Shown one piece after another: positions 53,943 to 61,334 of a stretch of 64,000 bases of DNA. Position numbers and translations under genes: made by a program. The stretch's first letter is position 1; the number at the start of each line of letters is the position of its first letter. The stretch spans positions 160,001 through 224,000 of the IMG/VR virus record IMGVR_UViG_3300017716_001697. The stretch is one strand, 5' to 3'. Below the pieces are notes generated by a model, which saw only the letters and a program-made list of their open reading frames with translations, was not told the DNA's origin and did not search any database. Source of the DNA: a virus (lineage: Duplodnaviria; Caudoviricetes).

Positions 53943-54995
53943 ATGGGATCATGGAACGGAACATGTGCAGTATCTAACCTGCACGTACGAAGCGGGCAAG
54001 AGGTAGCAGTATTCATGCTGCTCGAAAACAAAAGATCAAAATCCTTCTGTTATGGTAATGCATTGTACGATGTATGCCCGTTACCATTCTATGGCAAGTA
54101 TAATGATTACGGTGCAGTAGAAGACTGCCAAGGCCCGGTGTTGCCCATTGTGGTTGACGAAATCAAGCGCCAGCTGTACGAATTTGGCCAAGGCCCGAAC
54201 AGTAGCCACGACATGGTAGTACGCAGGGCCGATTTTGACATTGATCTGTTATTTGAAGCCGACCACGAAGATCGTCTCGGTATTCAATATACACCCTTCT
54301 TCGACGAAGATGATTATGATCTTCGCGAATTGCGTAAAGACGGTGAAAAAGATCAACTTACACCAGATCAGCAATTCGAGCTTGACAGACTAGCCAACAA
54401 ACTCAAACAGGTAGATACATTTAGACGTGTTACACACGTAATTATTCATGGTGATATTTTCCGTGATATCATGAATAAATATTACATCGATGAATATGTT
54501 GGTGACAGCAAAGGTACAACAGGTTATGGAAATAACTATAACCGTGTATTCTTTAAGGATATTCTTGCATCTATTCCTGCATACATCGATGCCTGCAAGT
54601 CTGAAGCGGCAAGAATTAATGCTATGACTGACCCGCATGAACAATGGGCAGAACGAAACATTCCTAAGGATGAATGGAAGAATCCTAATCTTGCAGCAAG
54701 ATGGCTAAACAGCTTCAGTAATAGCAGCGAAGGATTCGGGCTTCTTCGTGTCGACGAATACATTCGCGAATATAAGAATGACGGCCGGTGGGACGAGCTG
54801 ACAGACTTTGTTACAGAAGCGTTAAAGGGTGCATGGGTAAATAGATATATGTCATCCATCCGTAAGCTGTGGTCGAAGCAGACAGGTGCCGGCTCTCAGA
54901 ATGATGAACATGATGGATACAATATCCTGATCCAATCAATGACAGACGTATTGGCGGCCGAGAAGAAGGCGTGGGATGACGAGAACGGGGAGTAG
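53943..54995 (+). CDS. Hypothetical protein
   Basis: 350 aa, directly coupled to rtcB. Confidence 0.75.
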   Translation: MGSWNGTCAVSNLHVRSGQEVAVFMLLENKRSKSFCYGNALYDVCPLPFYGKYNDYGAVEDCQGPVLPIVVDEIKRQLYEFGQGPNSSHDMVVRRADFDIDLLFEADHEDRLGIQYTPFFDEDDYDLRELRKDGEKDQLTPDQQFELDRLANKLKQVDTFRRVTHVIIHGDIFRDIMNKYYIDEYVGDSKGTTGYGNNYNRVFFKDILASIPAYIDACKSEAARINAMTDPHEQWAERNIPKDEWKNPNLAARWLNSFSNSSEGFGLLRVDEYIREYKNDGRWDELTDFVTEALKGAWVNRYMSSIRKLWSKQTGAGSQNDEHDGYNILIQSMTDVLAAEKKAWDDENGE

Positions 54996-57663: not shown

Positions 57664-58290
57664 ATGATATGCGAATACGGATGTAATGGGGAGGCCAATC
57701 ATCAATTACTAAACGGTAAATGGTGTTGCAGTAAACGGCCCGCTGGTTGCAAGGTGCTAAAGGCAGTTAACTCGGCAGGTCTGAAGAAAGCGCATAGTGA
57801 GGGTAGGGGCGGATATATTTACAAAGATCTATCTGACGAAACCAAAGCCCGAATGAATTGGGCTAAGGGTAAGACTATTACACCCGATAGCGAAATATTT
57901 ACAGAAAATAGCACATACTCTAACGAGATGGTTAAACATAGAATTGTTAAAGGTGATCTATTAGAATACAAATGCTCTAATCCGAAATGTGGAATAACCG
58001 AATGGTGCGACGAATCTATTGTGTTAGATTTGGATCATATAAATGGTAACAACACAGATAACAGATTATCTAATTTACGATACTTATGCCCAAATTGCCA
58101 TTCTCAGACAGACACATACAAGGGCAGAAATAAGAATACAGGTAAGTTGAAAGTAACCGACACTGAATTGTTGGCAGCATATAAGGAATGCAATAATATT
58201 AGGCAAGCATTAATCAGCGTAGGAATTGCTGCAAAGGGTGGCAATTATGAAAGATTAAAAAAATTAATTAGCAAAACGCTTGCCCTATAG
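57664..58290 (+). CDS. Free-standing HNH endonuclease (homing-type)
   Basis: YKCSNPKC, LDLDHINGNNTDNRLSNLRYLCPNCHS; GATAAATA at 57637 and AGGAG RBS. Confidence 0.9.
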   Translation: MICEYGCNGEANHQLLNGKWCCSKRPAGCKVLKAVNSAGLKKAHSEGRGGYIYKDLSDETKARMNWAKGKTITPDSEIFTENSTYSNEMVKHRIVKGDLLEYKCSNPKCGITEWCDESIVLDLDHINGNNTDNRLSNLRYLCPNCHSQTDTYKGRNKNTGKLKVTDTELLAAYKECNNIRQALISVGIAAKGGNYERLKKLISKTLAL

Positions 58291-58308
58291 CTAAATATGT
58301 TGTATAAT
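58280..58308 (+). promoter_or_regulatory. Promoter for tRNA/ncRNA cluster
   Basis: TTGCCC-N17-TATAAT, with a CTAAATA late-like motif in the spacer. Confidence 0.6.
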
Positions 58309-58358: not shown

Positions 58359-58648
58359 GCGGGTATGGAGAAATTGGTAAACTCACCAGACTTAGAGAAA
58401 TAAAATTTGAGTGCCCGGTCGGAAACGATCGGAGTAGAACCTGTCAAATTCGGCGAACACTTTAACATGTCAACGCCGAGCGAAGCCCGAAAGGGAACGT
58501 GTAGAGACTTGACGGCAGGTACCTAACGCAGAAATGCTACGGTAAAGACAAAGTCCAGACTATCAAACCGAGAGGGTAGCGAAAGCTATAGTAGTAAGAA
58601 AATCTGGCGCCGCAAGGCTTGACGGTTCAAGTCCGTCTACCCGCACCA
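58359..58648 (+). tRNA. tRNA-Leu(UAA), intron-split (exons 58359-58393 and 58599-58648)
   Basis: Acceptor GCGGGTA/TACCCGC; joined exons give CCAGA-CT-TAA-AA-TCTGG; long variable arm; GACGG-TTCAAGT-CCGTC; ACCA. Confidence 0.93.
58394..58598 (+). mobile_element. Group I intron (IC3-like), 205 nt, no ORF
   Basis: P1 ACUU|AGA:UUUGAGU with U-G at splice site; P2 GAAA hairpin; P3 ACCUGUC/GGCAGGU; P4 UUCGGCG/CGCCGAG; P7 G-A-GACUU/AAGUC-C; P8; P9; terminal G. Confidence 0.93.
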
Positions 58649-58743
58649 TATTAGGATACATTGTGCAGACGCGGTAGCTAGCCCAAAAGGGACTTTACTA
58701 GCGACAATGGTGAATGCAGGTACAACAGTGTATCCCAATATGG
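58646..58743 (+). ncRNA. Helix-closed RNA module H1
   Basis: CCATATTAGGATACATTGT / ACAGTGTATCCCAATATGG (18/19 paired). Confidence 0.6.
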
Positions 58744-58744
58744 T

Positions 58745-58927
58745 GCCATATTAAAACGCATAAATGCATTAGTTGCATTGGTAATCTGAATGACGTGGAT
58801 AGCTGCATCTTACCCACTGTCAAACAGAGGACATTGCAGGTGATAGCAAATGTAATGGTTTACAGCTAGGCGATTAGAGTCTGGTAGGTGGGTTCAACTC
58901 CTGCTAATGCGGTTTAACATGGCACCA
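58745..58927 (+). ncRNA. Helix-closed RNA module H2 with T-arm and ACCA end
   Basis: GCCATATTAAAACGCAT / ATGCGGTTTAACATGGC then ACCA; GTGGG-TTCAACT-CCTGC at 58888-58904. Confidence 0.6.
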
Positions 58928-59017
58928 TATCGAAGTACATTAACTGAGTACAAGGCTCAGCGTGCGAATTTTAGTAACTAAGCCTCAAGAGGAAGCTATA
59001 GTGTACTTCGATATGGT
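58924..59017 (+). ncRNA. Helix-closed RNA module H3
   Basis: ACCATATCGAAGTACATTA / TAGTGTACTTCGATATGGT; internal hairpins CTGAG/CTCAG, TTAG/CTAA, CCTC/GAGG. Confidence 0.65.
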
Positions 59018-59031
59018 ATAATGTAGACGTA

Positions 59032-59132
59032 TATTGTAACATACACGGAAGGTAATTGGTCCGTGAAACTCGACTGTGGTGTAATGGTAGCACTCAAAAG
59101 TTCCTGGTTCGAATCCAGGCCCGCAATAACCA
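59032..59132 (+). ncRNA. Anticodon-less tRNA-like element
   Basis: D-arm GTGT-AATGGTA-GCAC, T-arm CCTGG-TTCGAAT-CCAGG only 9 nt later, TATTGT/GCAATA helix then ACCA. Confidence 0.45.
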
Positions 59133-59138
59133 AAGGGG

Positions 59139-59182
59139 GTTCGGCACAACGAGTAGGAGAGATGGTTCGATTCCGTCCGAAT
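59139..59182 (+). pseudogene. tRNA remnant (T-arm plus short helix)
   Basis: GATGG-TTCGATT-CCGTC with GTTCG/CGAAT flanks; no D or anticodon arm. Confidence 0.35.
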
Positions 59183-59190
59183 AGAGTTTG

Positions 59191-59269
59191 CATATTAGAG
59201 GGCATTATGCTTCTATTTAAAAAGGGAGCCTGTGCTGGCACATTGGCACATCTAATGTCCTCTAATATG
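59191..59269 (+). ncRNA. Helix-closed RNA module H4
   Basis: CATATTAGAGGGCATTA / TAATGTCCTCTAATATG (17 bp incl. 1 G-U). Confidence 0.6.
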
Positions 59270-59423
59270 ATGCAGGTAGGCAAATGTGGTAAAGCCGCCG
59301 GTTCGGTCCGGTGAGAGATATGTTGAAGTCTTACATGATGACGGGTAGCTGGGTCGACACAGTCCGTACAGTGGCAGGAGCGATATATTTCGTTTATGGG
59401 TTCGATTCCCATCTTGTATCCCA
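59269..59423 (+). ncRNA. tRNA-like RNA with 83-nt variable-arm insertion
   Basis: Acceptor (G)ATGCAGG/CTTGTAT(C)+CCA, D-arm GGC/GCC, GCCGG-TTCGGT-CCGGT arm, T-arm ATGGG-TTCGATT-CCCAT. Confidence 0.7.
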
Positions 59424-59428
59424 GAATA

Positions 59429-59628
59429 GCCAGGGTAGCTCAGTCAGGCACGAAACTTAAAGGGAAGATGTTGCAACATTCAACGGAGAGAAGTAATGAC
59501 TTAGGAAGGTTAAGTAGTAAGCATCTTATGATACGCGGTGTAAGGTGTGTAGGTGATAGCCAACTATTAAGTAGAGCAACCAGTATCTAACTGGAAGGTC
59601 GTTGGTTCAATTCCATCCGCTGGCACCA
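59429..59628 (+). ncRNA. tRNA-like RNA with ~123-nt D-loop insertion
   Basis: GCCAGGG/CGCTGGC+ACCA, D-stem GCTC/GAGC 132 nt apart, CCAG-TATCTAA-CTGG, GTTGG-TTCAATT-CCATC. Confidence 0.72.
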
Positions 59629-59634
59629 AATTAT

Positions 59635-59749
59635 GCGATGATAGCTTCAGGTTGGTAGAGCGCGTCATTGAATGCCCTATTTATTCTACGTTATGGTATA
59701 TAGGCGAGTGGTCAGGACGAGGTCGCAGGTTCAACGCCTGCTCATTGTA
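59635..59749 (+). ncRNA. tRNA-like RNA with ~40-nt anticodon-loop insertion
   Basis: GCGATGA/TCATTGT, D-arm GCTT/GAGC, CGTC/GACG enclosing 49 nt, AGGTC, GCAGG-TTCAACG-CCTGC; no adjacent CCA. Confidence 0.68.
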
Positions 59750-59753
59750 TAAG

Positions 59754-59861
59754 CCATATGAGAATACACTGTGGAGAGCACTGCGTATGACTGGGAAGGT
59801 TTGAACCCGACTCACATCGTCACTCGGTATCCTGCGGCCGCAACAGTGTATTCCCATATGG
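59754..59861 (+). ncRNA. Helix-closed RNA module H5
   Basis: CCATATGAGAATACACTGT / ACAGTGTATTCCCATATGG (18/19). Confidence 0.65.
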
Positions 59862-59863
59862 TA

Positions 59864-60180
59864 CGAAGGGTAGAAGATGATATCAAAGGCTATTTCCTTT
59901 TTTGATAGACGAAACGCTGTGGCCACGGTGTTAGACTACTTATTGGTTAACCATTGTACCGCCAGATTCCGAAGCCTGTAATCAGGCCTGCCAAACAGTA
60001 AATTGGAGTGTGGGAGGACGCACTTAAAACCATCTCCCGCAGGGTCACCATGTGTTATGAGCGGTGATAGTTTAGCGAACCGGAGTCCTAAAAACCGGAA
60101 GGGTAAAGCAAACTTACCTACAAGTAGCGAAAGGTCTGCTATAGCAGTCAAGCCATCCTAGTCTGGAAAACTAGGGTGCA
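59864..60180 (+). ncRNA. Candidate ~320-nt multi-hairpin RNA
   Basis: No + strand ORF; hairpins TATCAA/TTGATA, GCCTG/CAGGC, TGTGGGAG/CTCCCGCA, TCACC/GGTGA, CCGG/CCGG, GGTAA/TTACC, CCTAGT/ACTAGG. Confidence 0.45.
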
Positions 60181-60348
60181 TTTATTTTAGAAAGATATCC
60201 ATATGTACACTTATGCATGGACCATATTTGGTTATTACGGTGGACCTACTATGACAACAAATTATCAACAACACTGTTCGTGGTACACTGTTGACGATTT
60301 TGGTGATCTCGTACCTGCCACATACAAAATGGATTATTTGGAGACAAC

Positions 60349-61248: not shown

Positions 61249-61334
61249 TTAGACAGCGGCGGCGCCGGGTGTTATAATATGCTGAGCCTAGTACAAAGGG
61301 TCGACACGCAAGATACATAATTCGCAGCATATTT

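Follow-up and report, generated by a model that had tools for sequence, protein, structure and literature searches.

We identified a gene in a freshwater phage that probably encodes a stable, non-decoding tRNA mimic, kept whole and co-transcribed within an operon, with a long variable arm that would display a conserved loop. It adds a variant to the known but unexplained tRNA-like RNAs of phage tRNA operons. The window, which is the whole 64,000-nt stretch of DNA that was analysed, comprises bases 160001–224000 of a phage record that is complete, carries direct terminal repeats and measures 364,576 bp, and coordinates refer to the window unless given as genome positions. The tRNA-like gene occupies 59269–59423 (about 155 nt; base 1 is 59269).

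The gene lies in a 1.9-kb non-coding, gene-free stretch that is framed as one unit by promoter-like and terminator-like sites, here called the operon. The first element of the operon is a tRNA-Leu(UAA) that a group I intron interrupts (53 bits in Rfam; also read by ARAGORN in intron mode), followed by helix-closed RNA modules and several abutting tRNA-like genes, at least three of which are altered. Spacers between the modules and the tRNA-like genes are 0–5 nt long, and the next tRNA-like gene is 5 nt away. An HNH (homing) endonuclease gene stands directly before the unit and an RtcB gene lies 5 kb upstream of it. The elements around the gene are:

58280–58308, + strand: promoter-like site TTGCCC-17-TATAAT at the operon head, from a consensus scan only
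59191–59269, + strand: upstream module H4, with a closing helix of about 17 bp, CATATTAGAGG.../...CCTCTAATATG, abutting the tRNA-like gene, from sequence reading
60154–60188, + strand: terminator-like hairpin and T run at the operon end, from a consensus scan only

The consensus scan also marked a promoter-like site at 59243–59271, which was set aside because transcription would begin inside the tRNA-like gene. Further upstream (58646–58648 and 58743–58750), the encoded CCA of the tRNA-Leu doubles as the first three bases of the H1 closing helix, CCATAT, and successive operon modules near 58646–58750 abut with 0–2 nt between them. The abutting modules and the CCA shared by the tRNA-Leu and H1 suggest coupled processing. 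The gene next after RtcB (53943–54995) encodes a 350-aa protein without a Pfam family, its sole match being phrog_5960 (unknown function); it is also found within a few kb of RtcB in the related phages L005 and L011.

The tRNA-like gene presents a cloverleaf: its acceptor stem has 7 bp, its D arm carries G18 G19 and its T loop is of the TPsiC type. The canonical 7-nt anticodon loop presenting a triplet is absent. Its scaffold consists of:

59269, + strand: G-1, able to pair with C73 (59420); it also closes H4 by pairing with C59191 (sequence reading and MFE fold)
59270–59276, + strand: acceptor stem 5' strand ATGCAGG, with 7/7 pairs to 59413–59419, including G3.U70 and G6.U67 (folding and scan)
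59279–59296, + strand: D arm with a 3-bp stem GGC/GCC, A13.A22 and loop AATGTGGTAA containing G18 G19, unchanged in both relatives described below (X2 and X3)
59297–59312, + strand: arm at the anticodon position, with a 5-bp stem GCCGG/CCGGT and a 6-nt loop TTCGGT (59302–59307), pair probabilities 0.83–0.88
59396–59412, + strand: T arm ATGGG TTCGATT CCCAT (folding and scan)
59413–59423, + strand: acceptor 3' strand CTTGTAT, then C73, then the encoded CCA (59421–59423) (sequence reading)

An initial annotation, made from the DNA letters, had described intact acceptor, D and T arms and CCA, a 6-nt anticodon loop TTCGGT and an 83-nt insert at 59313–59395, all of which are borne out by sequence reading and folding. 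The G-1:C73 pair (59269:59420) and the G3-U70 wobble in the acceptor stem that it had reported are both present, and G-1 is, as claimed, the last base of helix H4 (C59191-G59269). U8 and A9 are also read in the sequence, and the acceptor helix is 8 bp long when G-1:C73 is counted. The phage carries 45 tRNA genes, 43 of which encode CCA, and a tmRNA (genome 30533–30892, ARAGORN). The layout of tat, G-1 ... C73-CCA is common to the tRNA-like gene and the phage's own tRNA-His gene.

ARAGORN made no call at the locus in its default mode; given the scaffold with the arm trimmed, it calls a tRNA with a two-base 'anticodon'. The canonical tRNA family of Rfam (RF00005) did not match even at E up to 10, and the sole hit was an 18-bit partial tRNA-Sec. 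We scanned both strands of the 365-kb genome for a strict cloverleaf with an insert (7/7 acceptor pairs, a TTYRANN T loop, a D arm with GG, U8 and a length of 100–330) and obtained three matches, all inside the operon: the intron-bearing tRNA-Leu, the tRNA-like gene and a 118-nt neighbour. The same scan over 1.35 Mb of other phage loci gave two matches. The scaffold is therefore more than a chance match, and it is real. The folding energy of the whole molecule, taken alone, is not unusual (z = -1.2). Annotators should be aware that standard tRNA finders miss such genes or, in intron mode, name them suppressor tRNAs.

The claim that the RNA is unlikely to decode holds. The 6-nt loop TTCGGT and its stem are identical in X2 and X3 and provide no usable anticodon, no excision yields a conserved anticodon, and the phage has its own normal tRNA-His(GTG) (genome 9426–9498) and 44 other tRNAs.

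The extra material of the gene is placed between the anticodon-position arm and the T arm. The arms of class II tRNAs reach roughly 20 nt, and the arm of this gene is several times longer than in any known natural tRNA, by a factor of about four relative to normal tRNAs. Its parts are:

59313–59395, + strand: variable region, 83 nt between the anticodon-position arm and the T arm
59315–59325 (bases 47–57), + strand: basal helix 5' strand, forming 11 bp with 59381–59391, pair probability 0.95–0.99
59341–59367, + strand: apical hairpin, pairing 59341–59344 with 59364–59367 (bases 73–76/96–99) and 59348–59351 with 59360–59363 (bases 80–83/92–95)
59352–59359, + strand: apical 8-nt loop GGTCGACA, containing the palindrome GTCGAC
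59381–59391 (bases 113–123), + strand: basal helix 3' strand, placed by folding alone

Residues 59315–59391 (about 77 nt) fold as a single rod-like arm in both the MFE and centroid structures, for the reference as well as the X3 variant, and the predicted rod has roughly 26 bp. Between the basal helix and the apical hairpin, the reference fold contains short helices (bases 61–64/108–111 and 66–68/103–105). The insert had originally been drawn as three hairpins. The middle one survives as the apical hairpin (59341–59367), while pair probabilities in hairpins 1 and 3 do not exceed 0.01, and the three-hairpin fold is 9 kcal/mol worse than the single rod (-39.2 versus -48.4 kcal/mol).

Two further ideas about the arm were dropped: that it holds a copy of an anticodon loop, as no arm loop has 7 nt, and that the tip loop has a partner in the genome, as matches to the loop occur at chance level. 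The only other genome copy of GGGTCGACAC is at 61298 of the window, also a match at chance level. Just upstream of it, in a second RNA array, is a strong promoter-like site with an extended -10 (61250–61278, TAGACA-17-TATAAT with TG).

We compared the gene with two close relatives, X2 and X3, both of which are contigs from public sequencing runs. The X2 contig (228 nt) is identical over 59266–59374 (109 nt). Its upstream flank is unrelated, and the gene boundary at 59266 coincides with a recombination boundary. The X3 contig (2167 nt), from a run labelled cDNA that is probably DNA, covers 58943–59964 with 99 substitutions and 54 gap letters and is about 85% identical. In the region of 58604–58922, a contig of run X3 joins the end of the tRNA-Leu to the start of module H3 via a stretch of 38 different letters, which includes another T arm. 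This contig is without modules H1 and H2, and the operon array is thus modular and mosaic. Both helix strands of H4 are unchanged in X3 and its interior is altered.

Within the gene, the X3 comparison spans 59269–59373, ending before the 3' third of the gene and covering only the 5' strand of the basal helix. The block 59243–59322 is unchanged, so that bases 1–54 of the gene carry no substitution, versus about 11% in the surrounding array. Because the arrays are mosaic, as seen from the other flank of X2 and an X3 contig without H1 and H2, this 80-nt block may reflect recent recombination instead of purifying selection. The adjoining bases 55–105 (59323–59373) hold 20 substitutions and 3 deleted letters. 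Along the 5' strand of the basal helix, 59315–59322 are unchanged and 59323 and 59325 are altered. U59331C (U63C) converts a G.U pair of the rod model to G-C, and the helix 66–68/103–105 is not kept; that part refolds differently, still as a rod.

The apical hairpin retains all 8 pairs in X3. Two compensatory double changes are found, C59342T with G59366A (C74U/G98A) and C59349T with G59362A (C81U/G94A), and pairing also survives A59341G (A73G) and G59348A (G80A). No change falls in the loop GGUCGACA or in the two pairs that close it (12 nt), in a stretch that has otherwise diverged by about 40%. When 20 substitutions were scattered over bases 55–105 in a simulation, the chance of keeping all 8 pairs with at least 6 changed paired bases was about 0.001. 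In X3 the structure of the insert is conserved in its apical hairpin, and not in hairpin 1 of the three-hairpin drawing, which is destroyed by the loss of 2/4 pairs. From these sequence comparisons, the gene is probably under selection. The initial annotation had taken the gene for a tRNA that serves to carry a structured RNA; this fits the invariant scaffold, the fast-varying arm with compensated pairing and the constant tip loop, and we infer the same.

The region holds no protein gene. An overlapping 138-aa frame, used as a query against 5.8 billion proteins, found only itself, and in the X3 contig the indel lengths are not divisible by three and the only + frame acquires a stop. The frame without relatives, the frame-breaking indels and the stop together indicate that the region is not coding.

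Beyond X2 and X3, searches of IMG/VR, JGI metagenomes, GenBank phages and 23 related phage records gave no homologue of the gene. Searches of the gene with blastn and nhmmer against 81 loci around related RtcB genes found none, and a blastn comparison of the 51–64 kb part of the window with the same 81 loci showed the gene homologue to be absent. Exact-pattern scans of IMG/VR with the 3' end, the D/anticodon part, the apical loop plus T loop, and the insert of the neighbouring gene were empty. A first scan of the JGI metagenomes returned nothing, and a looser one at least 120 matches, which were due to chance or to tandem tRNAs. The loci around the flanking 109-aa and 69-aa proteins held no homologue of the gene, and the GenBank phages yielded only distant relatives of the 69-aa protein. 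A covariance search had been put forward with the initial annotation as a means of checking it; the single-sequence model (R1), run on the 81 RtcB loci, the 23 whole related phage records and 80 metagenome loci, met only ordinary tRNAs or tRNA pairs.

In two metatranscriptome runs (X8 and X9), no contig lies on 59260–59387, which counts neither for nor against expression. At 59436–59615, contigs from these two metatranscriptome studies cross the 123-nt D-loop insert of the neighbouring tRNA-Arg-like gene unbroken, with 2–7 mismatches. The tRNA-Arg-like form with its 123-nt insert thus stands in RNA libraries, where DNA carry-over is possible.

We propose that the gene would be transcribed as part of the 1.9-kb operon, from its position between the promoter-like and terminator-like sites. 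The tRNA body may then let the host RNase P, 3' trimming and CCA repair excise the RNA from its precursor and stabilize it. In bacterial tRNA-His, RNase P cuts one base upstream and G-1 is kept; the G-1:C73 pair probably makes RNase P leave G-1 here in the same manner. The arm would be retained in the mature RNA, with stems free to change provided that pairing holds. Variation of the arm stems with pairing kept, together with a conserved tip, points to a partner that recognizes the tip, and the loop GGUCGACA is the likely contact for this partner, be it RNA or protein. A wider conjecture, which we hold as tentative and rather doubtful, is that complete tRNA bodies act as natural expression scaffolds for fast-evolving structured RNAs. 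The arm would display its palindromic loop, the RNA would be processed like tRNA-His and maybe histidylated, and it would act on a partner from the host or the phage, counter-defence being one example. If this is true, the operon represents a new class of tRNA-scaffolded effector RNAs.

The tRNA-like fold might instead be a processing handle and nothing more, a cut site for RNase P and 3' nucleases that separates the modules, with an arm that has no role of its own. Such tRNA punctuation is known in mitochondria and in plant t-elements. It would account for modules and tRNA-like genes that abut with spacers of 0–5 nt, for a G-1 common to the gene and helix H4, for the overlap of the tRNA-Leu CCA with the CCATAT start of H1, and for the several tRNA-like genes of the operon that cannot decode. 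However, a handle needs no 77-nt arm, yet the apical pairing has been kept via two compensatory doubles and the 12-nt tip is unchanged with about 40% divergence around it. We consider this explanation unlikely.

We give similarly little credence to a tRNA mimic that is aminoacylated or at least bound by a synthetase. It would be a substrate or competitor for the host HisRS via G-1:C73, or less likely for AlaRS via G3.U70, or else a decoy for a host defence directed at the acceptor ends or elbows of tRNAs. In the gene, the bacterial acceptor set for histidine, G-1 and C73, is complete. HisRS charges mini- and microhelices with G-1:C73, a pair that converts an alanine minihelix to histidine acceptance, and plant-virus tRNA-like structures are also HisRS substrates (PMC9976931). 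Histidylation is possible, by analogy, because HisRS charges such G-1:C73 helices. Genes for HisRS, for any other class IIa synthetase and for a CCA enzyme are absent from the phage genome, so any charging would use host enzymes. Against this, the second histidine element, the anticodon GUG, is absent: there is no 7-nt loop and no GUG in the loop. Retention of G-1 hinges on the RNase P cleavage site, and G-1 may equally belong to H4. The mixed identity elements noted in the initial annotation are in the sequence, but of the acceptor sets the histidine one alone (G-1, C73) is complete; G3.U70 is the only element present from the bacterial alanine set of A73, G2-C71, G3.U70, G4-C69 and G20 (PMC9976931), while position 73 is C, 2-71 is U-A and 4-69 is C-G. 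The second wobble, G6.U67, indicates that wobbles are simply common in this acceptor stem, and U70 and C73 lie outside the compared part of X3.

A decaying tRNA pseudogene or a rearrangement product without function could explain the narrow distribution without a distant homologue, the lack of a close paralogue among the 45 phage tRNAs, for which an origin from a particular phage tRNA was dropped, and the position in a mosaic region beside a homing-endonuclease gene. We regard this as very improbable, given that every scaffold helix is intact, including the 8-bp acceptor helix with the encoded CCA, that the first 54 nt carry no substitution against about 11% around them, and that the arm shows compensatory changes.

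Least of all do we expect an interrupted tRNA gene, from which a working tRNA would be made by removal of the insert as an intron and ligation of the ends, with the phage RtcB encoded 5 kb upstream as one possible ligase. ARAGORN in intron mode reads an amber suppressor tRNA(CUA) of class II, interrupted between positions 34 and 35 by an intron of 62 nt (59305–59366); the group I intron of the neighbouring tRNA-Leu occupies the same site. Splicing would give a class II molecule whose D stem has 3 bp and whose variable arm has 20 nt, and another tRNA(CUA) exists in the genome. But neither the anticodon nor its stem is conserved: in X3 the putative anticodon is altered (A59368T) and ARAGORN then reads UGA, and position 37 and stem positions 39 and 41 are changed, with C29-G41 becoming C.A. 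The anticodon stem of the model contains a G.G mismatch and has pair probabilities of 0.00, and its 3' splice site would fall inside the hairpin supported by covariation. A group I intron would need more room than the insert offers, no Rfam ribozyme family matches the insert, it shows no bulge-helix-bulge, and the phage has no gene for a splicing endonuclease (tRNA_int_endo). An intron of the group I or bulge-helix-bulge type was therefore rejected. Excision of the whole 83-nt region still leaves a 6-nt loop, and the open-frame statistics of the phage give no signal of TAG recoding. A 76-nt tRNA of ordinary appearance with a CUA (amber-reading) anticodon lies outside the window, at genome 33705–33780.

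We compared the candidate mimic with known RNAs. The nearest precedent in kind appears to be the T4 species I and II RNAs (RNAC/RNAD), which are stable, have no known function and derive from the same polycistronic precursor as the T4 tRNAs (PMC2330249, PMC9697503). The candidate RNA of this phage is encoded inside an operon of tRNA-like genes, with a promoter-like site ahead and a terminator-like site behind. It has no sequence similarity to the T4 RNAs (no T4-type match in the GenBank phage search), and it is a full cloverleaf with its extra material in the variable arm. The gene is a clear and well-defined candidate for the stable non-tRNA RNAs in phage tRNA clusters, whose role has been unexplained for fifty years since T4.

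The helical arm between the anticodon and T arms, the 3-bp D stem and the unpaired 13:22 are shared with class II tRNAs (Leu, Ser, Tyr, Sec) and allo-tRNAs. Those RNAs decode with a 7-nt anticodon loop, unlike the 83-nt region and 6-nt loop found here, and the acceptor elements C73 and U2-A71 are not those of Ser, Leu or Tyr. A review that covers the irregular long-arm tRNAs (allo-tRNAs, Mukai 2017) gives class II arms as exceeding 10 nt and reports that polycistrons of irregular tRNA-like sequences occur in soil metatranscriptomes (PMC7609411). With the phage tRNA-His, the gene shares G-1:C73 followed by an encoded CCA and the T loop TTCGATT, but it has no GUG anticodon and its body is not specially similar.

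Bacterial Y RNAs (YrlA/Yrn1) mimic tRNAs, bind Ro60 and are in many cases encoded alongside RtcB (PMC4201824). They likewise do not decode, combine a tRNA-like D/T core with a long helical module and have an RtcB gene nearby, and D. radiodurans Yrn1 also has a 6-nt 'anticodon loop'. In contrast, the phage RNA ends at an acceptor stem with CCA rather than at the base of a Ro-binding stem, the phage has no gene for Ro60 (TROVE), and the locus matches no Y RNA family of Rfam. The tRNA-like domain of tmRNA resembles the gene in its acceptor/T module, its G3.U70 and the absence of an anticodon. The gene differs in its 155 nt without a tag reading frame, the only + frame gaining a stop in X3; neither ARAGORN nor Rfam finds a tmRNA at the locus, and the phage has its tmRNA elsewhere.

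In engineered 'tRNA scaffold' RNAs and gammaherpesvirus TMER genes, a tRNA body gives processing and stability to an attached structured RNA. The cargo replaces the anticodon arm in the engineered scaffolds, and hairpins follow the tRNA in TMERs, whereas in the phage gene, which belongs to a bacterial system, the variable arm would be the cargo.

Other tRNA genes with unusual arms were observed in this phage and its relatives. A tRNA-Ile(UAU) of 92–101 nt with a long variable arm of the class II type is found in the phage (genome 53935–54026, outside the window) and in two related contigs (L018:9887–9987 and L020:4678–4778), which is unusual for isoleucine and recalls the allo-tRNA(UAU) group (PMC7609411). 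Conversely, three tRNA-Leu genes of only 77 nt (genome 8754–8830, 10631–10707 and 15366–15442, outside the window) are without the long variable arm expected for leucine, which the other Leu tRNA genes of the phage, of 84–85 nt, do have.
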